Counted from the stretch's first letter, positions 21,184 to 59,480 are shown. The stretch is 64,000 nt of DNA from Planctomycetota bacterium (GCA_009691715.1 SIAN01000013.1:24868-88867); one strand, 5' to 3'. A program made the numbers and translations. Notes: a model not told the origin generated them from the sequence alone.

Positions 21184-22727
21184 TCAGCGCGCGACGTCGG
21201 CGTCGGCGGCGGCCTCGGCCAGCAGGCGGTCGAGCGCGGCGCGGTCGAGGTAGACACCGCCGCGGATTACGGCGCGGATGCGCGCGAGGTGGCGCACATC
21301 CTCGAGCGGGTTCGCGTCGAGCAGGACGAGGTCGGCCGCCTTGCCGATCGCAACCGTGCCGATCTCGCGTTCAAGTTCGAGCGCGATCGCCGGGAGCAGC
21401 GTCGCTGACTGCAGCACTTCAAGCGGCGTCAGCCCGGCCTGCGCCAGCAGTTCGAACTCCTCGTGCAGGCTGTACCCGAAGTACACGAACGGGAAGCTGT
21501 AGGCGGCGTCGGTTCCGGCGAGGATGCGCGCGCCGCCGCGGTGGAGGTCGCCGACCATCCGCACGCGGTTCGCGCGCTTCTGCTGCCAGTCGCGCCGGAT
21601 CTTCGCGTCGTCGTCGCCGCCGAGATCGACCCTGCCGAAGAACCAGCCGCGTTCCTGCGCCATCGACTGAAGCCATTTGCGCACCTCGGCGGGCGGCACC
21701 GACGCGAGGCGAGGATCCTCGAAGAGCTTCGCCAGCGCCTGGTCTTCCTCGGCGATGACGTCGTCGCGGTAGCGCGCGAGCCCCTTTACCAGCGTCGGCG
21801 TGAACCAGGTGCCGCTGCGCGCGAAGCGCCGGCCGAGCTCCTAGGCAACCGCCGGATCGTACGTCTCGATCCCGAGATGAAAGGTCTCCTGCTCGAGCTC
21901 GTAGCGCCGCTTCCAGTCGTCCTTCACCTCCGCGTCGACCTGCTCGCGCAACTTGCCGCGAATCACCGGTTCCGCGGTGCAGGCGTCCATCCGGTGGCGA
22001 AACGAGTGCTCGATGAAACGCCTGCCCGCGTCCGATGCTTCAGCGGCCGTCAACTCGAGCGGCACGTGGCCGGCGAGCGGCAGGCCGCGCTTCCTCGCCT
22101 CGTCGGCGATGGCGAAGAAGCAGTCGCGCGGCAGCTGCGTGTAGACCTTGACGAAATCCATCCCGCCATCGTCGAGGGGCGCCACCGTCGCGCGCGCTTC
22201 GTCTGGCGTCGCGACCGACCAGAACTGCTTGAAGATCGGATTCGGTCCGTCGATCAGCGGGCCACTGGTGACGAAGCGCGGCGCAAGCAGCCGTCCGGCC
22301 GCGATCTCCTCACGCAGTGCGGCGATCTCCGCGAACGGCAGGGTCGTGTTGGGATCGCGGAATCCGGTGATGCCGTTCGCGAGGAGCAGCCGGCGCGTCC
22401 GCTCGAAGCGACCGGACATGAGCGCGTGGGCGTGGCTGTCCCACAGTCCCGGGATGAGGAAAGCGCCGTCCGCGTCGATGAACCGTGCGGCGACGACCCG
22501 CTCCGCGCCGACGTCGCCGATGGCGGCGATGCGGCGGTCGCGGATCACGACCTCCTGACCCTCGAGCCGTCCTCGACGTTGACGACGGTCACGTTGCGCA
22601 GGACGTACGGATCGAGCAGGTCGGTCGGCGATCCGGTCGGCGGAGTTGCGCAGTTCGTCACGACCGCTCCCAGCAGTGCGGCCGTGAGCGGCGAAACGCT
22701 GTGGCAACGCATGCGAGCGGTCTCCAT
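21184..22727 (-). pseudogene. Secreted metal-dependent amidohydrolase-family gene disrupted by one frameshift (~22560) and one in-frame TAG (21841-21843)
   Basis: N-terminus (22545-22727 frame): signal-like MRCHSVSPLTAALLGAVVTNC...YVLRNVTVVNVEDG. It continues in another frame as LEGQEVVIRDRRIAAIGD...FIDADGAFLIPGLWDSHAHA (the HxH metal motif). After ...YDPAVA comes TAG, then the same frame continues as ELGRRFARSGTWFTPTLV...ILAGTDA...DLVLLDANPLEDV to the stop at 21184. Confidence 0.7.
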
Positions 22728-22857
22728 GACGGGTAGGGCGGGCGTGACGGTAGGGCGTGGCGCGCGCCGACGGAATCGCTTTCCATTTCGGTCGGGTGGG
22801 CGCGCGGCCGATCACTTTCCCGCGACGGCACGGCAGCCGGCGCGGGGAGCCAGACGC

Positions 22858-24081
22858 ATGTCCATCCGCACGCTGCTCGATTTGATGGTCCAGAAGGAGG
22901 CGTCCGACCTGCACTTGAAAGTAGGCAGCCCGCCCGGCCTTCGCATCCACGGCGACCTCAAGCCGATTCCGGGCGAGCCGGTACTGACCGCGAACATGAC
23001 GCGCGCCTACTGCGACGAACTGCTGACGACCGAGGCGCAGCGCGCCACCTACGAGAAGAACTTCGATGTCGACTTCAGCTACGGTGTCGCGGGGCTCGCC
23101 CGTTTCCGCGTGAACCTGTTCCGCCAGCGCGAAAACTGCGGCGCGGTGCTGCGGAAGATCCCGTTCCAGGTGCCGCCGCTCGAGTCGATGAACTTCGGGC
23201 CGGTGATCAAGGAGTTGTGCGCCAAGCCGCGCGGGCTCGTGCTCGTGACCGGGCCGACCGGCTCGGGCAAGTCGACCACGCTCGCCGCGATGATCGACTA
23301 CATCAACGCCACCGAGCACGGCCACATCCTCACGCTCGAGGACCCGATCGAATTCGTCCACCAAGACAAGAAGTGCTTCGTCAACCAACGCGAGATCGGC
23401 ACCGACAGCAAGAGTTTCGGCAACGCGCTCCGTTCGGCTCTGCGCGAAGATCCTGACGTGATCTTGGTCGGCGAGATGCGCGACCTCGAAACGATCTCGC
23501 TCGCGGTCACGGCCGCCGAGACGGGCCACCTCGTGTTCGGCACGTTGCACACGACCAGCGCGGTGCAGACGGTCGATCGCATCATCGACGTCTTCCCGCA
23601 TGACGCGCAGCAGCAGATCCGGATGCAGCTCTCCGTCGTGCTGCAGGGCGTGATCTCGCAGACGTTGCTGCCCAAGCAGGGCGGCGGGCGTTGCTGCGCG
23701 CAGGAGATCATGATCGGCACCGATGCCGTGCGCAGCCTGATCCGAGAAGGCAAGACGCAGCAGCTCTTCAACGTGCTGCAGACCGGTCAGCAGTTCGGCA
23801 TGCAGACGCTCGAGGCGCATCTGGTGAAGCTGGTGCAGCAGGGACTGATCACCGCGGCCGACGCGGTGTCGCGCTCGAACAGCCCGGCCACGGTGGTGGC
23901 GATGCTGAAAGGCGCCGCCACGGCCGCCGGCGTTCCTGCTGGCAATGCGGCGGTGGTACCACCCGTCGAACCGCTTTCAGGCGCCAAGCTCGCGGCGAGC
24001 CGGCCGATCGCGAAGCCAGACGGCGGCGTCGACGATTTCGAGAAGTTCCGGCAGCAGCGGCGCGTCGACTCGCGCAGTTGA
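22858..24081 (+). CDS. pilT: Type IV pilus retraction ATPase PilT-family protein with a ~60-aa Ala/Pro-rich C-terminal extension
   Basis: 407 aa from ATG 22858 (GGGGAG upstream; in frame with the 872-aa track ORF). ASDLHLKVGSPP, Walker A GPTGSGKSTT, ILVGEMRD, GHLVFGTLHT and AVRSLIREGK are PilT signatures. Confidence 0.88.
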   Translation: MSIRTLLDLMVQKEASDLHLKVGSPPGLRIHGDLKPIPGEPVLTANMTRAYCDELLTTEAQRATYEKNFDVDFSYGVAGLARFRVNLFRQRENCGAVLRKIPFQVPPLESMNFGPVIKELCAKPRGLVLVTGPTGSGKSTTLAAMIDYINATEHGHILTLEDPIEFVHQDKKCFVNQREIGTDSKSFGNALRSALREDPDVILVGEMRDLETISLAVTAAETGHLVFGTLHTTSAVQTVDRIIDVFPHDAQQQIRMQLSVVLQGVISQTLLPKQGGGRCCAQEIMIGTDAVRSLIREGKTQQLFNVLQTGQQFGMQTLEAHLVKLVQQGLITAADAVSRSNSPATVVAMLKGAATAAGVPAGNAAVVPPVEPLSGAKLAASRPIAKPDGGVDDFEKFRQQRRVDSRS

Positions 24082-27463: not shown

Positions 27464-29089
27464 GTGGCCGCGGCTGATCGCCAGCGGGTCCTGATCCTCG
27501 ATTACGGGTCGCAGTACACCCACCTGATCACGCGCCGCGTGCGCGAGCTCGGCGTCTACGCGGAGACGCTGCCGTGCTGGGTGGCGAGCGAGGACGCGCC
27601 GGATGCGGCGAGCGGTCTGGTCGGGATCATCCTTTCGGGCGGCCCGAACAGCGTCTACGACGCGGGTGCACCACAGGTCTCGGAGTGGGTGCTGAAGCGG
27701 GGAGTGCCGGTGCTCGGGGTCTGCTATGGGATGCAGGCGCTCGCCTACAAGCTCGCCGGCCGGGAGGCGGTCGCACGCGGCGCGAAGGGCGGCGAATACG
27801 GCCACGCGCAGCTCGAGCGGGTGGATGGTGCCGACGGGGGCAGTGGCGCTGACGGAGTCGGTGGTACCGACGAGAGCCCGCTCCTGCGCGGGCTGAGCCG
27901 CTCGACCAACGTCTGGATGAGCCACGGCGACAGCGTCGCCAAGGTACCGGCCGGCTACCGCTTGATTGGCCGATCTCCGACCTGCCCGATCGCCGCCATC
28001 GAGGATCGCGCGAATCGGATCTGGGGCATCCAGTTCCATTCCGAGGTGACCCACACGACCGAGGGACGGACGCTCCTTTCGAACTTCCTCTACGCGATCT
28101 GCGGCGCCACCAAGAGCTGGGCGATGGAGTCCTTCCTCGAGGAGGCGAAGCAGAAGATCCGCGCGCAGGTCGGCAAGGGACGCGTGATCCTCGGGCTGTC
28201 GGGCGGCGTCGACTCGTCGGTCGCGGCCGTGCTGCTGCACGACGCGATCGGCGAGCAGCTCACCTGCATCTACGTTGACAACGGCCTCATGCGCGCCGGC
28301 GAATCGGACGAGGTGGTCGCCACCTTCCGCGACCACTTCAAGATCCAGCTGCGCGCGGTGGACGCCGGCGAGCGCTTCCTCACCGCGCTCGCCGGCGTCT
28401 CTGATCCGGAGCAGAAGCGCAAGATCATCGGTCGCGTCTTCATCGAGGTGTTCGAGGCCGAGGCGCGGTCACTCGGCGATTCGGCGCTCGGCGACGCCAA
28501 GTTCCTCGGTCAGGGGACGCTCTATCCCGACGTGATCGAGTCGGTGTCGCCCAAGGGTGGGCCATCGCACACGATCAAGACCCACCACAACGTCGGCGGC
28601 CTGCCGGAGAAGCTCGGCCTCGCGCTGGTCGAACCGTTGCGCGAACTGTTCAAGGACGAAGTGCGCGAGCTCGGTCGCCGTCTCGGCGTGCCGGCGACGA
28701 TCCTGCAGCGCCATCCGTTCCCGGGTCCCGGCCTCGCCGTCCGCTGCCTCGGCGCGCTCGACCCGGAGAGCCTCACGCTGCTGCGCGCGGCCGACAAGAT
28801 CGCGCGCGAGGAGCTCGACAAGAGCGGCTGGATGGCGAAGACGTCGCAGGCGTTCGTCGTGCTGTTGCCAGTCCGCAGCGTCGGTGTGCAGGGCGACTGC
28901 CGGACCTATGGTCGCGTCGCGGTGCTGCGCGCGGTCGAGACCGAGGACTTCATGACGGCGGGGTGGGCCAGGCTGCCGCACGAACTCTTGGCCACGATCT
29001 CGAGCCGCATCACGAACGAGGTGCGCGGCATCAACCGCGTCGTGTTCGACATCACGAGCAAGCCGCCCGCGACCATCGAGTGGGAGTGA
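27464..29089 (+). CDS. guaA: GMP synthase (glutamine-hydrolysing)
   Basis: 541 aa from GTG 27464 (GGAGG 6 nt upstream; ATG 27449 is an alternative, both in frame). ILDYGSQYTHLITRRVRELGVY, GVCYGMQ, ATP-PPase SGGVDSSV, and C-terminal KPPATIEWE. Confidence 0.93.
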   Translation: MAAADRQRVLILDYGSQYTHLITRRVRELGVYAETLPCWVASEDAPDAASGLVGIILSGGPNSVYDAGAPQVSEWVLKRGVPVLGVCYGMQALAYKLAGREAVARGAKGGEYGHAQLERVDGADGGSGADGVGGTDESPLLRGLSRSTNVWMSHGDSVAKVPAGYRLIGRSPTCPIAAIEDRANRIWGIQFHSEVTHTTEGRTLLSNFLYAICGATKSWAMESFLEEAKQKIRAQVGKGRVILGLSGGVDSSVAAVLLHDAIGEQLTCIYVDNGLMRAGESDEVVATFRDHFKIQLRAVDAGERFLTALAGVSDPEQKRKIIGRVFIEVFEAEARSLGDSALGDAKFLGQGTLYPDVIESVSPKGGPSHTIKTHHNVGGLPEKLGLALVEPLRELFKDEVRELGRRLGVPATILQRHPFPGPGLAVRCLGALDPESLTLLRAADKIAREELDKSGWMAKTSQAFVVLLPVRSVGVQGDCRTYGRVAVLRAVETEDFMTAGWARLPHELLATISSRITNEVRGINRVVFDITSKPPATIEWE

Positions 29090-29268
29090 ACGGAGCGGCA
29101 AGAGCGCGACGGGGCGCCGAGCGCGCTTCATCGTGACCCCGACCGGGCCTGTTCGCCCTTCCGGTCGGCGAGGCGCTCGGTAAGGTCGCCGCGCGTCTTC
29201 TGCGATCCCCCTTTGCGAATGCGATCGGGGCGCGTGCTTTGGGTGGACGACGCAACGTGAGACAGGCG

Positions 29269-30618
29269 ATGGCTCGACGCCCGAATTCCGCGAAGCTGCC
29301 GTTCACCCTGCTGGTCACTTCGCTGGTTGCAGCCTCTGGCTGCGACAACGCACTCCGAGGCAGTGGCGGCGCCGGGTCGACCATCGACAACACGCACTAC
29401 GAACTCACGTTTGCGTTCGACGACGGCTCGGCCGAGTCGACCGTGGTGATGGGCGCGCTTTCACGCATCGAACTGGCGCTGCCGACAGTCGGTTACTCGC
29501 GCGTGCTGTCGGTGCTGGACGACCTGGTCGACCCGGCGCGGCTCGCCGTCAGTCCGAGCGTGGATCTGGGCGATGTGTCGGGCGACTTCATCGCGGCCGG
29601 CACCAACATCGCCACCACGCTCCACGACCTTGGCCGGCTCCACGCGCTTGAGATGCCCGATGGCCGACCCGGAATCGCGATCGAGATCGATGACGGCGAG
29701 CTGCCGGCGTTCCCGATTGGCCGCATGCTCTGGACCGTGACCGTACTCGACGACATCGACCGCGTCTCGAACCCGCTGCAGGTCGGATTGACGGTGCGTG
29801 CGCCCGACCGGCCGACCGTCGCGTTGTCCTTGCAGATCCCGCCGTTCGGCTCGACCGTCCCGACCGGCGTCTCGCTTCCGATCGATGAGGAGAGCGTGCC
29901 CTACATCGGCAAGAGCCTCGACTTCGTGCTGGCGCTGCGCCTGATCCCGAATCCGGAGTCCGGCGCGATCTTCGAGAGTCTGGTCGTCGATGGCGCGATC
30001 GACATCGCGCGAGTCTCGGTCGTCGCCAACCGGAATCTGGGCGATCCCAAGAATGGCGGCTTCGATGCCGGCACCAACGTCGCGGCGCTGCTCGGTGCCG
30101 ACCTCGATGTGTTGGTCGACGCCGAGACCGGAGAGATGACGATCACGTTGCTCTTCCCGGTAGGCGCCGCCTACTCGCCGCTGCTGGGCGACACGCAGTT
30201 CACGATCTCGGCGATGGACGACGCCGACGTGCGCTCCTTCGACCAGGCGATCTCGCTCCGCGCGGTGACGCCGGTCAAGCTGTCGGCGAACGTGCAGTCG
30301 ATCCTCACGTCGAAGTGCGCGACGACCGTCTGCCACGACAACAGCAGCCCGGCCGCGGGCATGCGGCTCAACAGCGGCCGGACGTTCGGCGACACGGTGC
30401 GAATCCGCTCCGGCCAGACGCCGGAGGACTCGTGCGCGGCGAATCGCATCGAGCCCTACGTCCTCGACGCGTCGTACTTCTGGCACAAGCTCATGGACAC
30501 CCACGAGGATCCTTGTGTCGGCGGATCGGGCGGCGACATGCCTCCGACCGGAAACCTGACCGCAGGGCAGTTGGCGACCATCGAGGATTGGATTCTGCAG
30601 GGCGCGCATGACAACTGA
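29269..30618 (+). CDS. Lipoprotein of unknown function with a C-terminal Planctomycete-cytochrome-c-like (PSCyt-like) domain carrying CX4CH instead of CxxCH
   Basis: 449 aa from ATG 29269 (alternative 29239). Lipobox LLVTSLVAASGC. C-terminus VQSILTSKCATTVCHDNSSPAAGMRLNS...YFWHKL...GDMPPTGNLTAGQLATIEDWILQGA. The CATTVCH codons are at 30316-30336. Its stop overlaps the next gene start by 11 nt. Confidence 0.7.
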   Translation: MARRPNSAKLPFTLLVTSLVAASGCDNALRGSGGAGSTIDNTHYELTFAFDDGSAESTVVMGALSRIELALPTVGYSRVLSVLDDLVDPARLAVSPSVDLGDVSGDFIAAGTNIATTLHDLGRLHALEMPDGRPGIAIEIDDGELPAFPIGRMLWTVTVLDDIDRVSNPLQVGLTVRAPDRPTVALSLQIPPFGSTVPTGVSLPIDEESVPYIGKSLDFVLALRLIPNPESGAIFESLVVDGAIDIARVSVVANRNLGDPKNGGFDAGTNVAALLGADLDVLVDAETGEMTITLLFPVGAAYSPLLGDTQFTISAMDDADVRSFDQAISLRAVTPVKLSANVQSILTSKCATTVCHDNSSPAAGMRLNSGRTFGDTVRIRSGQTPEDSCAANRIEPYVLDASYFWHKLMDTHEDPCVGGSGGDMPPTGNLTAGQLATIEDWILQGAHDN

Positions 30619-32056
30619 ACCGCGTTGCGCAGTGCGCTCGGCCGTCGCTCTCGCCCTCTCCGTCGGACCGTTCGTGTCGAGCGCCGTCGCTGCTCCGACC
30701 GAACGTTTCGCGGAGCGCGAAGGTCTCGCTTGCGCCACCTGCCACGTCGGTACCGACGGCGGCCCGCTGACGGCGTTCGGCCGCGACTACCGCTGGCGCG
30801 CGCCGTTCTTCCAGGATGGCCAGGAAGGTGGCGAACTCGCCGCACCGGTGGGCGCAGGCAGCAGCTCGTTCGGCCGCTGGTCGGGCGAGCTCGCATCGTT
30901 TGCGCGGAGCGGCCGCGACCGCGCCTTCGGCGAGCGCACGCACACCTGGTCGGCGACCGAAACGCTTCGGCTCCGTGGCGACGAGTTGTTCGGCGACGAG
31001 TCGCTGTCGTTCCGCGGCGACGGCTTCGCCAGCAACTGGGACGGCAGCGGCGACTATGGCTTCGACGAAGACTCGCTGGGATTGAGCAGCGCGGAAGTGA
31101 CCTGGCGCGGCGACGCGGCCGGCTCGTTCGTTCGTTTCGGACGGCAGTTCGTCGTGGCGGGCGCAGCGACCCGTCGCGTGGATGGCGCCGCGATAAGGCA
31201 GCCGCTCGGTGAGCGACTCGAGCTCGACCTGTTCGGCGGTGCGCCAGTCGAGGACGGCCTCGGCGGGCGCGGCGGCGACCTCATCACCGGCGGCCGGCTT
31301 GGCGTGCGGCTCGGCCAATCGCTTCGTTTCGGCAGTTCGGCGTACTACGCCAAGGACCATTCCGACCCGAGCGACGTGAAGGGCGGGCTCGACTTGCAAT
31401 GGAGCCCCACGCGACGGTTCGAGCTCTTCACCCACTTCTACTGGGACTGGCTTGCCGACCAGCTCTACGACGCGCGCGCGCACCTGGTCTTCACGCCCAC
31501 GATCGAGTGGCAATTTGCGTACGACTGGACCCGCTCGGTGCCAGGCCTGTTCCTGCCGAAGAGCTCGCTCTACTCGGTCTTCTCCGACGAGGAGTACGTG
31601 GAGCACGGCCTCACGGTCACGCGCCGCTTTTCCTCCGCGCTGTCGGCCAACGTCTTCGGCCGCCACACCGACTACGCCGAGAGCGACTCGCTGGCGCAGG
31701 TTGGGAGCGGGCTCGACGCGCGCTACGGACCGAATGGCGAGGATGCGGTCGGTGCCGAGGCGGGCTGGCAGGACGAGTCGCGCACCAGCTTTGGCGGCAG
31801 CTCGACTGACGACGACGCGCTGTTCGCGCGAATCTGGCACCTGCTCTGGTGGACCGGCTCGATCTACACCGCGGTCGACGCCTCGACCTTGTTCGTGATG
31901 GACGATTCGTTCGAGCGCGATGCCGCGCTGGTCCGCATCGCCGCCGGCTACGACCCGCACGCGTGGTGGGACGCCGAGATCGGCACCGACTGGGTGCGCG
32001 ACCCCGACTTCGAGAGTCGTCTCGACTTGTTCGCGCGCCTGCGCATCCGGTTCTGA
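30608..32056 (+). CDS. Candidate fused monoheme cytochrome c - outer-membrane beta-barrel porin (Cyc2-like architecture)
   Basis: 482 aa. Signal peptide (AVRSAVALALSVGPFVSSAVAAP). A single CxxCH (FAEREGLACATCH, codons 30731-30745) lies immediately after the signal. The remaining ~430 aa are Gly/Asp/aromatic-rich with alternating-residue strands (LDLQWSPT, FELFTHFYWDW, AHLVFTPTIEWQFAYDW) and end in LRIRF, a C-terminal Phe as in OM barrels. Confidence 0.65.
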   Translation: MTTEPRCAVRSAVALALSVGPFVSSAVAAPTERFAEREGLACATCHVGTDGGPLTAFGRDYRWRAPFFQDGQEGGELAAPVGAGSSSFGRWSGELASFARSGRDRAFGERTHTWSATETLRLRGDELFGDESLSFRGDGFASNWDGSGDYGFDEDSLGLSSAEVTWRGDAAGSFVRFGRQFVVAGAATRRVDGAAIRQPLGERLELDLFGGAPVEDGLGGRGGDLITGGRLGVRLGQSLRFGSSAYYAKDHSDPSDVKGGLDLQWSPTRRFELFTHFYWDWLADQLYDARAHLVFTPTIEWQFAYDWTRSVPGLFLPKSSLYSVFSDEEYVEHGLTVTRRFSSALSANVFGRHTDYAESDSLAQVGSGLDARYGPNGEDAVGAEAGWQDESRTSFGGSSTDDDALFARIWHLLWWTGSIYTAVDASTLFVMDDSFERDAALVRIAAGYDPHAWWDAEIGTDWVRDPDFESRLDLFARLRIRF

Positions 32057-32069
32057 GCGGGAGTCGCCG

Positions 32070-33182
32070 ATGACGAAGTCGAACGCGAAGCGCACCCGCT
32101 GGGCCGTGGCGACTGCCGGCGCCCTGCTGCTGTTCGCGGCGTCGTGCATCGTCGTGACCGGTCGCACCGGCGACTCGATCCGCTTTTCTCCCGCCGCGCA
32201 CGCCGACCTGATGCAGGACTGCGATGGCTGCCACGACGGGATCGCCGGCCACGCGGTCGACGCCACGACGCGCCGGGCGCTCGAGGCGAAGTGCATCGCC
32301 TGCCACCAGGACCGGAAGGACGACTGCGCCTACTGCCACACCGATGTGGCCAACGCCGGGACCTTCCCGTACCGCGATCGCGCGCTCCTCTTCAGCCATG
32401 AGACGCACCTCGAACGGACGCACGGCGACTGCGAAGCGTGCCACGTGAACGCCCACGGGACGGTGAACTCGCTGCCCGACCCCGCCGGCCACGCAATGCC
32501 CAAGCACGCCGAATGCTTCTCCTGCCATGAAATGCAGGGCTTCTACGACCAGATGGAGTGCCGCAACTGCCATCAGGATCTGGCGCGCTACGGACTGCTG
32601 CCGTACGAGTCCTTCACGCACGCGGGCGATTTCGTCGGCCGCGGTCACGCACAGCTCCTGCGCTCGACCGGCAACGTCGCGACCTGCGCGCAGTGCCATG
32701 AGCAGTCGTCGTGCGACGAATGCCACTTTGCAGATGTGGGCGCCGGAGCGACCCGCCTCACGCCCGGAATGCGCCTGCCTGAGAAGGTCCACCTCGGGCT
32801 GATCCACCGCGGCGATTACCTCTTCCGCCATCCATGGGACGCGCGCAGCGACCCGGCCTCATGCGTGAAGTGCCACTCGACGAGCTATTGCCGCGACTGC
32901 CACGATGACCGCGGTCTGTCGGCGAAGGCCGCCTTGACGCGCACCGACGGCTTCCAGTTCCACGGGCCGGGCGTGCTCTTCCCCGGATCGAGCGAGTTCC
33001 ATGGCACCGCCGCGCGCCGCGATCCGATCTCCTGCGCCGCCTGCCACGAGGACGGCTCGCAGGCCAACTGCACCAGCTGCCATCGCGAAGGCGCATTCGG
33101 CGGCAACCCGCATCCAGCGGGATTCAAGAGTCGCCTCAACAAGCGGACGGCGTCGGTCTGCCGGCTCTGCCACACGAAGTGA
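32070..33182 (+). CDS. Multiheme c-type cytochrome lipoprotein with 13 CxxCH motifs
   Basis: 370 aa from ATG 32070 (GGGAG 6 nt upstream). Lipobox LLLFAASC. CxxCH sites: CDGCH, CIACH, CAYCH, CEACH, CFSCH, CRNCH, CAQCH, CDECH, CVKCH, CRDCH, CAACH, CTSCH, CRLCH. Many additional His residues could serve as distal ligands. Confidence 0.88.
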   Translation: MTKSNAKRTRWAVATAGALLLFAASCIVVTGRTGDSIRFSPAAHADLMQDCDGCHDGIAGHAVDATTRRALEAKCIACHQDRKDDCAYCHTDVANAGTFPYRDRALLFSHETHLERTHGDCEACHVNAHGTVNSLPDPAGHAMPKHAECFSCHEMQGFYDQMECRNCHQDLARYGLLPYESFTHAGDFVGRGHAQLLRSTGNVATCAQCHEQSSCDECHFADVGAGATRLTPGMRLPEKVHLGLIHRGDYLFRHPWDARSDPASCVKCHSTSYCRDCHDDRGLSAKAALTRTDGFQFHGPGVLFPGSSEFHGTAARRDPISCAACHEDGSQANCTSCHREGAFGGNPHPAGFKSRLNKRTASVCRLCHTK

Positions 33183-33224
33183 CGGCGTGGATCAGTCGCG
33201 CAGGCCGCCGTCGAGGCGGCGGCC

Positions 33225-35005
33225 TCAATGACGCAGGTAGCCGAGCTCGCGCAGCCGCTCGATCTCGGAGGGCGTCAGCTCGCGGCGCTTGGGTCCGCCG
33301 GAGGACGGCAGCGACTCGCTGACGGCGCGATGATCCTCGCGGCACGCCTCGAGCTGCCGCAACGGTCCCTGCAACCGCGCCGGGTCGTCTTGCGCGAGGT
33401 CGTGACGCGCGGCGGGATCGACATCGACGCGGAAGAGCCGCAGTCGTTCCGGCACATCGCCCTGCGCCGGCCAGCGCATCAGTTTCCACGGGCCGACCAC
33501 CAGTGCGTCGCGGTCGACCGGCCGCGTTCCATCGCCGAGGACCAGCAGCCGCGGGCGATCGCTCTCCTCGGGCGGAGCCGGCGCGAGACGATCGACGGCC
33601 AGCACGCGCGGATCGGGCGGAAGGCCGAGCAGTCCCGCGAGCGTCGGCGCGGCACGTCCGGGCCGCGCAGGATCCACGGCACCTGCGTCGACTCGCGATC
33701 AAGCTCCTGGTGAAGGCCAAAACGGCCGTGCTCCTGGAACTCCTCGCCGTGGTCGGCGATCACGCAGACGACGGTCCGCTCGGCGCGGCCGAGCCGTTCG
33801 GCCACCGCCGCGGCTTCGCCGCGATCCGCCTGCTGCGACAACGCCTCGACCGAGCGATCGGATGGCTTCGCGGCGCCTGCGCCGCCGCGCGCCCGCCAAT
33901 GCGGATGGGGTCGGTAGTTGCGGACCAGGAAGGCGTGGACGAACAGGCAGAACGGCTGGTCGGCGTGCCGGCGCAGCCAGTCGAGCGTGAAGTCGACATC
34001 GTCGTGCTCGCCGCGCGCTCGTGCGGCCTTCTGCGCGTCCGGGAGTCGATTCAGCCGCGACCGCGCGCGCGGATCGTCGATGCCGTACCAGTCGAAGCCG
34101 AGGCCGAATCCGCTGCGCGGCTGCACCGGACCGCCGCTGGTGAACGCCGCCGTGGACCAGCCGAGATCGCGGAGCCGCTTCGACCAAAGCAGCGTCTGCA
34201 CCGGATCGATCACTCGATCGTCGGCGTCGGCGGAGAACGCGACCTCGACGATGCCGGGCGCAGCTCCGTACCCCGGTTCCGGACTGGTCACGCTGCCGCG
34301 CCACGTCGGCTGGCCGTCGACCAAGATGGCCAGGTCGACGATTCGACCGCAGTCCGATGACAGCGCTGCCGGACGGAACAGCAGGCGCGGTCGCTCGCGC
34401 GGGACTTCCACTCGCCACGTGACCGAGGCGCCGCTCGGCACCAGCAGCGCATCGCCGGTGGCGTGGAGCAGGTCGACGGTGCGCGCCAGCGGGTGGGTCG
34501 ATTCATCGATCACGAGGCGCGGCAGGGTCGCGAGCTCCGCGATCGAGCGCGACTCGGCGAGTGCGATCCAGTCGAGATCGAGCGGCGCGTCGCCGGAATC
34601 CGCGATCGGGAGTTCGACCCGTTCAATCTCGATCGCATCGTTGAAGGAGATCTGCACCAGGCGCTCCGCCTGCTCGTCCGGCGAGGGCGCTGCCGCGTGG
34701 TGGTGCCAGACCAACAACTGCGCCGGGATGGTGCCGGTGCCGGCAAGTCGTCGCGCGGGGTCGGCGAGGCGTCCGCGGGATCCGCGAGGTCGCGGCCGTC
34801 GAACCAATCACGATCGGGCGCCGCGTCGGCATCGCTGCGCCAGGCCGTCCGACCGAGCGCCGCGCTGCCGGGGGGGCGCCGTCGCGCCTGCGCCGGTGCC
34901 CGCGCCAGGGCCGGAATCGCCGCCGACCGCGCAGGCCGCGGCGACGAACGATCCGACGAAGAGGCTGCGAACGGCAGTTGGGGCAGGAAGGCGGAGACGG
35001 CTCAT
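33225..35005 (-). pseudogene. Decayed paralog of the sulfatase-like lipoprotein at 36638-39118 (frameshifts, internal loss of the catalytic core)
   Basis: The signal/lipobox segment MSRLRLPAPTAVRSLFVGSFVAAAC (34808-35005 frame) runs into a stop. The middle part (track ORF 33479-34807) aligns by eye with the paralog (ALLVPSGASVTWRVEVPRERPRLLF vs ALLVPAAAAITFHVAVPATRPRLRF) but lacks the ~90 aa holding LLISLDTTR...SPSAWTLPTH. The C-terminus (track ORF 33225-33677; GPWKLMRW...EIERLRELGY) is in a different frame. Confidence 0.7.
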
Positions 35006-56824: not shown

Positions 56825-58150
56825 ATGAGCACCGCGGATGGGGCGTACGTGGTCGCGACGGCGGAGAGCCTGCCAAGCAGGATCGGTGAGTCGGTCGAGG
56901 TGCGCGGCTGGCTCTACAACCGTCGTTCGAGCGGCAAGCTGCATTTCCTCGAAGTTCGCGACGGCACGTCGATCGTGCAGGCGGTCGCCTACGGTCCCGA
57001 CCTCGACAAGTCGTCGCCGGGGCTGTTCGAGAAACTCGGCGCTCTGCCGCAGGAGAGTTCGCTGATCGTCCGCGGGGTGGTGAAGGCATCGCCGAAACAG
57101 ACGCTCGGGGTCGAGATCGGCCTCGCGTCGGCGGAGATCGTCGGCGTCGCCGAGCCCTACCCGATCACCAAGAAGGAGCATTCGCCGGAGTTCCTGCTCG
57201 AGCGGCGCCATCTCTGGATCCGCAGCCGGAAGCAGCACGCGACGCTGCGCATCCGTGCGCGGATCATCAAGGCGATCCGCGACTTCTTCGATGAGCGCGG
57301 ATTCCTCTGCGTCGACTCGCCGATCTTCACGCCTTCGGCATGCGAGGGCACCACGACGCTGTTCGAGGTCGACTACCTCGAAGACCAGAAGGCCTACCTC
57401 AGCCAGAGCGGTCAGCTCTACGCCGAGGCCTCGGCGATGGCGTTCGGCAAGGTCTACTGCTTCGGCCCGACCTTTCGCGCGGAGAAGAGCAAGACGCGCC
57501 GCCATCTGCGCGAATTCTGGATGGTCGAGCCCGAGATCGCGTACGGGACGCTCGACGACGTGATGGTCCTGATGGAGGATCTGATCGTCGCCGTCGTCGG
57601 TGCAGTGCTGAAGGACCGGCGGCCCGAGCTCGCGGTGCTGGAGCGCGACGTCTCAAAGCTCGAGGCGATCCAGAAGCCGTTCCCGCGCATGCACTACAAC
57701 GACGCGGTCGAGCTGCTGAAGAAGAAGGGCCATCCATTCGATTGGGGCGGCGACTTCGGCGCGCCCGACGAGGCGGAGATCAGCAACGAGTTCGACCGGC
57801 CGGTGCTGGTGCACCGCTTCCCGGCGCAGATCAAGGCGTTCTACGCCAAACGCGATCCGGCCGACGACCGCCTGGCGCTCGGCTGCGACTGCCTCGCGCC
57901 CGAGGGCTACGGCGAGATCATCGGCGGCGGTGAACGCGCCACCGACCTCGCCTTCCTCGAACGGATGATCGCCGAGCACAAGCTGCCGAAGGAGGCCTTC
58001 GAGTGGTACCTCGACCTGCGCCGCTACGGCAGCGTGCCGCATGCCGGCTTCGGCCTCGGAGTCGAGCGGACCACCGCTTGGATCTGCGGCACGCACCACG
58101 TGCGCGAGTGCATCCCGTATCCGCGCATGCTTTATCGCATCGTGCCGTGA
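56825..58150 (+). CDS. asnS: Asparagine--tRNA ligase (compact archaeal/Thermus-type AsnRS)
   Basis: 441 aa. OB-fold N-terminus ([25 protein letters not shown]). Class II motifs: [58 protein letters not shown]. Confidence 0.85.
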
Positions 58151-58187: not shown

Positions 58188-59480
58188 GTGGCGCGCCAGC
58201 TGATCCGTGACTTTGCGCTGAACAGCAGCGGGACCATCGCAGGTCGCGTGGTCGATCGGCTGCTCCATTCCGCGCCGCACTCGTTCGTCTTGCTCGATGC
58301 TTCGGGCGCCACCCGTGTGTTCGTCACGGGTGCGGTGCCGCCGCTCGGCGCGCTGGTCGAAGTCGACGCCGAGCGGACCAAGCGTGGATTCGTCGCGCAG
58401 AGCGTCCGTGTGGTCGGCGTTCCGACGCTTCGACCCGGCGAGATCGCGGAATGGAGCGTCCCAGAATGGAGCGAGCGGCGGCGCGAACTGCACGTACGTG
58501 ACCAACTGTTACGCACGCTGCGGACGTTCTTCTACGAGCGTGGATTCCTCGAAGTCGAGACACCCACCCTCCTTGCAGCCCCCGGCCAGGAGCCGCACCT
58601 CCTGCCGTTTGTAACCACCTTCCACGGCCGCGACGGGGCGCGTCCGCTCTGGCTCGCGACGTCGCCCGAGTACGCGATGAAGCGACTGCTCGCGCGCGGG
58701 CACGAGAGACTTTTTCAGCTCGGCCGCGCCTACCGCGACGGCCGCGACGAAGACTCGCCGCTCCATTCGCCCGAGTTCACGCTGGTCGAGTGGTACCGCG
58801 CCTGGGAGCCGCTCGAGGCGATCGGTCGCGACGTCGGCGAACTGCTCGCGGCGACGGTGCGCGCGCTGGGAACCGGCGGGACCGCCGTCGCGCGCGGCGG
58901 CCATCGCTGCGATCTTGCCGCGCCGCCGCGCTGGCTGCCGGTTGCCGACGCGTTTCGTGACCTCGCGTCGACCGACCTGGCGCCCTACCTCGACGGCGAC
59001 GACATCGCCTTCGTCGCCGCGTTGCCGGCTGCGCTTCCGCGCGTCGGTGCCACCGCTCGCGAACAGGCCGACTCCGCTTTCTTTCGCCTCCTCATCGAGC
59101 GGATCGAGCCCAACCTCGGCCGCCGCGAGCCGACCCTGCTCTGCCGCTATCCCGCGCGTCACGCCGCCCTGGCCGAGCTCTGCCCCGACGATCCGCGTGT
59201 CGCCAACCGCTTCGAGGCCTACGTCCTCGGCATCGAGCTCTGCAATGCGTTTCAGGAACTGCGCGACGCCGACGAGCAGGAGCGGCGACTGCGGGACGAG
59301 CAGGCGGTGCGGGTTGCCGCCGGAGGCGAGGCGCTGCCGCTTCACGAGCCATTTCTGCGAGCGCTGCGCAGCGGGTTGCCGCCGTGCGCCGGAGTGGCGC
59401 TTGGCGTCGATCGCCTCCACCTCCTCGCGAGCGGTGCGGTGTCGGTGCGGGATGTCCAGCCATTCCCGTTCGGGGAGTGA
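58188..59480 (+). CDS. EpmA/GenX(PoxA)-like class II LysRS paralog with an additional N-terminal OB-like domain
   Basis: 430 aa; GTG start with GGGAG 9 nt upstream. Catalytic core: FLEVETPTL, LFQLGRAYRDGRDEDSPLHSPEFTLVEWY (FRNE replaced by YRDG), ELCNAFQEL, CAGVALGVDRL. The first ~100 aa resemble an OB fold (GTIAGRVVDRLL...FVLLDASGATRVFV). Confidence 0.6.
   Translation: MARQLIRDFALNSSGTIAGRVVDRLLHSAPHSFVLLDASGATRVFVTGAVPPLGALVEVDAERTKRGFVAQSVRVVGVPTLRPGEIAEWSVPEWSERRRELHVRDQLLRTLRTFFYERGFLEVETPTLLAAPGQEPHLLPFVTTFHGRDGARPLWLATSPEYAMKRLLARGHERLFQLGRAYRDGRDEDSPLHSPEFTLVEWYRAWEPLEAIGRDVGELLAATVRALGTGGTAVARGGHRCDLAAPPRWLPVADAFRDLASTDLAPYLDGDDIAFVAALPAALPRVGATAREQADSAFFRLLIERIEPNLGRREPTLLCRYPARHAALAELCPDDPRVANRFEAYVLGIELCNAFQELRDADEQERRLRDEQAVRVAAGGEALPLHEPFLRALRSGLPPCAGVALGVDRLHLLASGAVSVRDVQPFPFGE

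Follow-up and report, generated by a model that had tools for sequence, protein, structure and literature searches.

Outer-membrane electron conduits decide which bacteria respire or oxidise minerals, humics and electrodes, and they are poorly known beyond Proteobacteria and Desulfobacterota. The subject of this report is a candidate conduit of three genes at 29269-33182 on the + strand of a stretch of 64,000 nucleotides from a Planctomycetota bacterium (GCA_009691715.1 SIAN01000013.1:24868-88867; the whole stretch is called the window below). The closest described systems are the two-gene porin-cytochrome (Pcc) clusters of Anaeromyxobacter and Ca. Kuenenia, which consist of a porin and a 12-14-haem cytochrome of 338-344 amino acids (PMC4245776). 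Shi et al. (2014, PMC4245776) gave 18-22 predicted strands for Pcc porins and argued that the 12-14-haem cytochrome of a two-gene cluster could bridge the membrane with no additional partner. The OmbB-OmaB-OmcB and Ext conduits of Geobacter sulfurreducens likewise bring a barrel and multihaem cytochromes, some of them lipoproteins, together in one cluster (PMC4282303, PMC6148476), and the Geobacter conduits include non-haem lipoproteins such as ExtH (PMC6148476). Porin-multihaem clusters in non-model phyla, for example Acidobacteriota and Verrucomicrobiota, are actively being reported (bioRxiv 10.64898/2026.05.27.727921). A second kind of solution is Cyc2, which is defined by a signal peptide, one CXXCH with PXFAR[Q/K][T/Y] upstream and PXL downstream of it, and a 16-strand porin (Keffer et al. 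2021, PMC8406198). The MtrCAB, MtoAB and PioAB systems follow the functional logic proposed below for the planctomycete locus, a barrel-sheathed haem wire with a lipoprotein cytochrome partner, but they use a 26-strand barrel and decahaems of other families, and no sequence relationship between them and the three genes was detected.

In the window, three open reading frames (ORFs) whose codon bias is that of real genes follow one another on the + strand. Gene 1 (29269-30618, 449 amino acids) encodes an accessory lipoprotein, gene 2 (30608-32056, 482 amino acids) a haem-fused outer-membrane barrel, as judged from its ORF, a structural model and profile comparisons, and gene 3 (32070-33182, 370 amino acids) a lipoprotein cytochrome with 13 haem motifs. 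Genes 1 and 2 overlap by 11 nucleotides (30608-30618), the ATG of gene 2 lying within the stop region of gene 1 (ATGACAACTGA), and between genes 2 and 3 there is a gap of 13 nucleotides (32057-32069), with GGGAG 5' of gene 3. An earlier note on this DNA had described the same tight packing and had proposed an outer-membrane electron conduit. The packing was confirmed in coordinates, overlap and gap, and the proposal is supported as very probable by the prediction of a 22-strand barrel and by a syntenic module of barrel and 13-haem cytochrome. More specifically, sequence comparison suggests that the trio is probably one operon for a Pcc-type conduit, because the haem-less barrels related to gene 2 are encoded between a multihaem lipoprotein and a 13-haem cytochrome, which is the layout of Pcc clusters of the Geobacter and Anaeromyxobacter type.

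Likened by layout and description, genes 2 and 3, 13 nucleotides apart, show the same adjacency of porin and large cytochrome as the two-gene Pcc clusters, for which Ca. Kuenenia stuttgartiensis provides a planctomycete precedent, and the 22 strands predicted for gene 2 in a model of moderate confidence fall within the Pcc range of 18-22. The earlier note held that the trio matches no characterised arrangement. This is partly right for the trio but not for the pair, since a barrel with a 12-14-haem cytochrome is the known two-gene Pcc layout (PMC4245776). Unlike in Anaeromyxobacter and Kuenenia, the porin carries an N-terminal haem module, gene 3 has a lipobox and there is a third lipoprotein that is not multihaem. 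The Geobacter conduits differ from the trio in haem numbers and gene order, and the trio is without an evident soluble periplasmic cytochrome. None of the Geobacter porins has a short N-terminal monohaem module; GM18_3465, with 10 haems in loops, is another kind of fusion.

Gene 3 is the only member of the trio recognised by Pfam and NCBIfam (Pfam Cytochrome_C7, E-value 2e-11, and Paired_CXXCH_1). As the earlier note had read it, the protein is a lipoprotein (lipobox ..FAAS-C26, with Cys26 at 32145-32147) containing exactly 13 CxxCH motifs, which span 32220-33173. All 13 motifs and many additional His are invariant among relatives of 33-74% identity, so the motif count is not a product of chance. 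By computation the product is a chain of 13 c-type haems that is anchored by a lipid and made up of c7-like units. Proteins of this kind form a haem wire about 10 nm long. The closest solved relative is the dodecahaem c7-polymer GSU1996 (PDB 3ov0, E-value 5e-25), which like gene 3 is an elongated wire of linked c7-type trihaem units. GSU1996 is, however, soluble, with 12 haems and no barrel partner, whereas gene 3, with 13 haems, has a lipid anchor and a barrel as its obligate neighbour. At least 269 metagenome relatives of the gene 3 family were found, and 13 motifs were present in 79 of the 80 that were retained. The cytochromes encoded downstream of the haem-less barrels align with gene 3 over the full length at 33-41% identity (E-values 1e-50 to 1e-71) with the 13 motifs aligned.

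The barrel of gene 2 occupies 30872-32053, as delimited by AlphaFold2 with DSSP and by hhalign. The model, built with 13 homologues, has 22 β-strands over residues 91-481, where the predicted local distance difference test (pLDDT) is mostly 65-88, with a predicted TM-score of 0.64; the first 85 residues are disordered. The sequence ends in RLRIRF, and its start is also kept among homologues (MTTE, MTAE or MTTD). Thus the signal peptide, single CxxCH, porin-like body and final Phe noticed earlier were all found again, and structure prediction, which had been suggested as a check, returned a large β-barrel. Gene 2 gave no match to Pfam or NCBIfam models and none by sequence to solved structures. 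A word-indexed search of 5.8 billion proteins yielded 14 relatives, none annotated, and genome matches were exclusively to metagenome-assembled genomes (MAGs) of Planctomycetota. An exhaustive profile search of 1.84 billion representatives widened the barrel family to 582 relatives. The closest of these bear an N-terminal CxxCH, and the bulk are haem-less barrels of 410-440 amino acids without Pfam domains, their named members being "hypothetical proteins" from MAGs of Myxococcales, Deltaproteobacteria and Nitrospirae. Alignment of the gene 2 barrel with 41 haem-less barrels in hhalign gave a probability of 100% (E-value 2.4e-55, 379 columns). By these profile comparisons the gene 2 barrel is a member of a mostly haem-less family from porin-cytochrome-type clusters. 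An invariant His of the barrel, H276, was considered as a distal ligand of the haem and rejected; it is not haem-specific, because it is common in the haem-less relatives as well.

The association of this barrel with the 13-haem cytochrome is conserved well beyond the window. In three loci with haem-less barrels, the barrel gene overlaps its neighbours by a few nucleotides and is followed by a gene for a lipoprotein of about 350 amino acids with 13 CxxCH. Two of the three have upstream a multihaem lipoprotein with 7-11 CxxCH, 1-2 CX4CH and the CX4C..CXXCH signature of Geobacter (PF09698, GSu_C4xC__C2xCH). Among the metagenome loci with enough upstream DNA, 47 of 49 have a barrel of the gene 2 family directly upstream of the 13-haem gene, usually overlapping it, and the gene 5' of the barrel encodes a 6-14-haem cytochrome wherever it is readable. 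Only L094 and L063 are without a detected barrel directly upstream, and L063 contains an oddly placed barrel fragment. The barrel and the 13-haem lipoprotein are an ancient and widespread module, an obligate pair across phyla. The module is large, unannotated and common in soil and peat metagenomes, and a limited literature search found no description of it as one family. In one haem-less cluster from a Deltaproteobacteria MAG (L012/L013, 8674-13260) the adjoining genes encode a Rieske protein, cytochrome b, a multihaem cytochrome and an NrfD-like protein; these may be a quinol-linked module feeding the conduit. A small further cytochrome follows the 13-haem gene in several haem-less clusters (L018-L020 and L025; for example L020, 5325-6125), and a small cytochrome at 8349-8681 of L012 is monohaem and of class I (Pfam Cytochrom_C/CBB3).

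Where the barrel is haem-fused, genes 2 and 3 are neighbours in every locus across differing genomic contexts, and they are the core pair. The full trio occurs in L004 and L008 in the same context as in the window (guaBA on one side, PMT_2 and sulfatase genes on the other), in L006 and L007 in another context (RHS and DUF3750 upstream, nitroreductase downstream), and also in L009 and in the contig of relative P0013. Gene 1 adjoins the barrel in the window, L004, L005, L008, L006, L007, L009 and L104, and does so only next to haem-fused barrels. L104, a distant haem-fused barrel from the exhaustive profile search, keeps the order gene 1, gene 2, gene 3. In L105 (GCA_040758315.1, 1083-6925), a distant haem-fused variant from the same search, the order is CHRD, cytochrome c', gene 2, gene 3, gene 1, with two extra genes and with the gene 1 homologue (E-value 6e-95) moved downstream of gene 3. 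Among the metagenome loci only L017, which is on the same contig as L006 and belongs to the Planctomycetota clade, combines a haem-fused barrel with a homologue of gene 1. The genes are thus kept together in relatives within unrelated surroundings, which is the synteny that the earlier note had proposed to look for. Since gene 1 is a frequent companion whatever the gene order, it is probably linked to the pair in function.

These observations bear on an alternative in which the barrel is not an electron sheath but serves for export or anchoring or is an ordinary porin, and the 13-haem lipoprotein is purely periplasmic, for example an electron store like GSU1996. The similarity of gene 3 to periplasmic GSU1996 would suit such an arrangement. 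Foldseek comparison of the gene 2 model with the PDB is also compatible with it, in that only large outer-membrane barrels and no specific relative were found, namely 24-strand ushers, 18-strand Occ porins and AlgE, so that ushers and substrate channels are among the matches. Furthermore, both proteins flanking the barrel are lipoproteins and there is no obviously soluble periplasmic cytochrome. However, strict adjacency of barrel and 13-haem genes with gene overlap, as seen in the 47 loci, is typical of obligate complexes, and the second multihaem lipoprotein of the haem-less clusters is most easily read as providing one cytochrome for each side of the membrane. Redox domains have also been fused to the N-terminus of the barrel repeatedly: besides the Cyc2-type haem of gene 2, there is a domain of class-I cytochrome c, about 100 amino acids long, in P0100, P0101 and P0111. 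Such fusions speak for a role of the barrel itself in electron transfer. Relatives P0024 and P0034 carry Cys-rich, Zn-ribbon-like N-terminal domains, and the N-terminus of the barrel seems to be a hot spot at which redox or metal-binding domains are repeatedly gained. Given these results, a barrel without a sheath function is considered unlikely, and a Pcc-type conduit remains the preferred reading.

The second alternative concerns the origin of gene 2. Behind an AXA-type signal peptide (30608-30691, read from the sequence, with cleavage at about AVA-AP) lies a monohaem module (residues 30-66, 30695-30805; PTERFAEREGLACATCHVGTDGGPLTAFGRDYRWRAP) with CATCH at residues 42-46 (30731-30745), and then a low-complexity linker (30806-30871) that has pLDDT below 50 and varies in length among homologues. 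The CxxCH and a short motif around it are invariant in 13 homologues. As stand-ins for Cyc2, a consensus query yielded seven Cyc2-like proteins in records of plasmids and megaplasmids (Caballeronia, Methylocystis, an Acidithiobacillus ferrooxidans plasmid, Ideonella, Ralstonia, Polymorphobacter and Paraburkholderia), and the matches were then verified. In the annotated records most of these genes adjoin c-type cytochrome genes and one is also near a HiPIP gene. All seven proteins bear P-x-F-A-[RA]-Q-T-G-x2-CxxCH...[FY]P-x-LT-x-[FY]GR-x-FK; the module of gene 2 reads PTERFAEREGLACATCHVGTDGGPLTAFGRDYR, and the pattern common to both is FA-x3-G-x2-CxxCH...LT-x-[FY]GR-x-[FY][KR]. In hhalign the module of the gene 2 family matched the seven Cyc2-like modules with a probability of 97.5% (E-value 4.8e-12, score 47.9, 28 columns, 50% identity), while 26 control windows around CxxCH motifs of the gene 3 family scored 28.4 at best. 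Hidden Markov models (HMMs) agreed in both directions when compared with controls from 191 cytochrome ORFs containing 1671 CxxCH. The model of the gene 2 module gave 12.5-24.4 bits on the Cyc2-like proteins and at most 12.5 bits on controls, and the model of the seven Cyc2-like modules gave 21.7 bits on gene 2 of the window, 8-29 bits across the gene 2 family and at most 10.1 bits on controls. The top-scoring controls were ORFs downstream of the 13-haem gene in L018-L020 and L025.

Such a match could mean that gene 2 is a true Cyc2-family iron oxidase and the unit a Cyc2 system for Fe(II) oxidation, with gene 3 merely a periplasmic electron acceptor. The design is indeed the same, a signal peptide, one haem in a module of about 35 residues and a barrel that ends in Phe, Cyc2 barrels likewise ending in an aromatic residue (PMC8406198). 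Gene 2 also has the signal peptide, the single N-terminal CXXCH (CATCH at residue 42) and the length of at least 365 amino acids (482) used to recognise Cyc2. The barrel, however, shows no similarity to the seven Cyc2-like barrels (hhalign probability 0.3%) and is larger, with 22 predicted strands against 16 in Cyc2 (PMC8406198), and so does not fit the 16-stranded homologous porin of Cyc2. The literal motifs PXFAR[Q/K][T/Y] and PXL are not matched either, gene 2 having the related PTERFAEREGLACATCHVGTDGGPLT (P-T-E-R-F-A-E-R-E), in which F34 is not conserved within the gene 2 family; P53 varies there too. A linker of 20-45 residues parts the haem module from the barrel in the gene 2 family and is missing in the Cyc2-like proteins. 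Gene 2 always precedes a 13-haem cytochrome and not a dihaem cytochrome of the Cyc1 type, and most of the barrel relatives among the 1.84 billion representatives are haem-less and come from multihaem clusters. A Cyc2 iron oxidase is therefore judged improbable, slightly more so than a barrel without a sheath function. Because its module matches Cyc2 modules while its barrel matches the haem-less family and not Cyc2 barrels, gene 2 is best described, on these alignments, as a chimera of a Cyc2-type monohaem module of about 35 residues, a variable linker of 20-45 residues and a Pcc-type barrel. The Cyc2-like architecture proposed in the earlier note thus holds for the haem module and fails for the barrel. 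A limited literature search found no description of a Cyc2-type module fused to a Pcc-type barrel.

The remaining alternative, a periplasmic multihaem enzyme of the nitrite, hydroxylamine or sulfite type lying by chance beside an unrelated porin, can be dismissed as extremely improbable, as the NCBIfam similarity of gene 3 to NrfH, QrcA and DsrJ is weak, far under the cut-off and due to haem motifs only, no catalytic-type motif was found in gene 3, whose 13 sites are all ordinary CxxCH accompanied by many conserved His, and the synteny with the barrel spans phyla. An identity as a nitrite- or hydroxylamine-type enzyme was ruled out by these synteny and family results; profile searches put the barrel and the 13-haem protein in one recurring module and not in the unrelated families that the earlier note had considered.

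Under the Pcc-type reading, the haem wire of gene 3 would be sheathed by, or docked in, the gene 2 barrel, as in MtrAB and the Geobacter Pcc complexes, and electrons would be carried along it between the periplasm and the cell surface. In the Planctomycetota lineage the barrel would have gained, on a flexible tether at its N-terminus, the short monohaem module of Cyc2 type. The tethered haem would begin on the periplasmic side, because the number of strands is even and the module is N-terminal, and this extra redox centre could let electrons in or out, offer a docking point in the periplasm, or plug the barrel from within. Gene 1 would take the place that the multihaem lipoprotein upstream of the barrel has in haem-less clusters, and is possibly a surface-side partner or substrate-contact subunit. 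A bolder version is also conceivable, though we think it less likely than not. It holds that the haem module of Cyc2 is a redox head that is autonomous and can be transferred, and which was grafted onto a Pcc-type barrel already sheathing a 13-haem wire, that the Cyc2-like haem passes electrons directly to the multihaem chain, for instance once Fe(II) has been oxidised in the pore or at it, and that gene 1 is a new surface haem or adhesin subunit. If true, the grafted head would for the first time connect, in evolution and in mechanism, the two main solutions to getting electrons through the outer membrane, which are supposed to be unrelated. A non-anammox lineage of Planctomycetota appears to have remodelled the module of barrel and 13-haem lipoprotein, which received a Cyc2-type haem module and was joined by a new lipoprotein. 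Should the chimera work, it would be a natural experiment that shows the role of the Cyc2 haem module by itself, and it would caution against taking a CxxCH-plus-porin architecture alone as a marker of iron oxidation.

Several results weigh against the proposed conduit. The barrel model is of moderate confidence only, with an overall mean pLDDT of 65. Among homologues, the gene 2 module shows no evident distal ligand of the haem that is conserved. No inner-membrane or periplasmic electron-transfer partner, including a quinol dehydrogenase or periplasmic carrier, is encoded near the trio in the window. In one clade (P0008/P0009; loci L001-L003 and L010) genes 2 and 3 are adjacent but an unrelated gene lies upstream and gene 1 is not beside the pair; hence the pair and not the trio is taken as the core. 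Finally, all sequences of the trio family come from MAGs or metagenomes and are known from sequence alone.

Gene 1 is the least familiar component. Its signal peptide and lipobox (29269-29343, ..LVAASG-C25) confirm the lipoprotein assignment of the earlier note, Cys25 being invariant in 9 homologues. The word-indexed search found 10 homologues, all unannotated and without Pfam domains. Comparison of the protein with Pfam and NCBIfam gave nothing meaningful, no match to solved structures was found by sequence, and a limited literature search did not find the family described. Residues 45-335 (29401-30273) are modelled by AlphaFold2 as tandem β-sandwiches of immunoglobulin (Ig)-like type with pLDDT 70-94. 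Foldseek returned adhesin C-domains, pilins, Fn3 and Fab, all at low TM-scores, so only a generic Ig-like fold is shown. The last 114 residues (336-449, 30274-30615; pLDDT below 50) form a putative monohaem domain with C350, C355, H356, C389, H412, C416 and M424-P425 invariant in 9 homologues, and close with a terminal W-I-x-Q-G-A helix. The protein has no CxxCH but a single CX4CH (CATTVCH, residues 350-356, 30316-30336). The L104 orthologue carries a canonical CTQCH at exactly this site and the L105 orthologue CAQIGCH; because of the former, the C-terminus of gene 1 is likely to bind one haem covalently at its CX4CH. The invariant M424-P425 could be the source of a distal Met. The earlier note had seen in this region the cytochrome c-type domain of planctomycetes (PSCyt), an assignment that found no support. 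Pfam PSCyt1 (PF07635) did not match the whole protein at E-values up to 1 or the isolated C-terminal domain at E-values up to 10, and hhalign of the C-terminus with the N-domain, itself weakly PSCyt1-like, of the cytochromes that lie upstream in haem-less clusters gave a probability of 42%, which is the level of the controls.

The trio lies, as the earlier note remarked, among housekeeping genes, with guaB and guaA upstream and genes for a PMT_2 glycosyltransferase, a sulfatase, DAO and gatCAB downstream. No further CxxCH-bearing gene was found in the window, which has a G+C content of about 69%. A promoter and terminator scan of 28800-33500 gave no promoters and one terminator-like site, within gene 2, which is fewer than expected from shuffled sequence, and an Rfam scan of the window gave no matches.

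Three further observations concern the rest of the window. Two overlapping sulfatase-like ORF fragments lie on the - strand at 33225-34807, where they fill a gap of 1.8 kb that separates gene 3 from the PMT_2 gene. They cover only part of the Pfam Sulfatase profile, the gap is missing in the syntenic locus L004, and the fragments are probably a decayed paralogue of the adjoining 826-amino-acid sulfatase. An ORF of 872 amino acids at 21463-24081 has a T2SSE ATPase domain in its C-terminal part only and probably over-extends the true start, since the syntenic gene in L004 encodes 425 amino acids. Lastly, two neighbouring genes at 56825-58150 and 58188-59480 resemble class-II aminoacyl-tRNA synthetases (Pfam tRNA-synt_2), the second being without the OB anticodon-binding domain.

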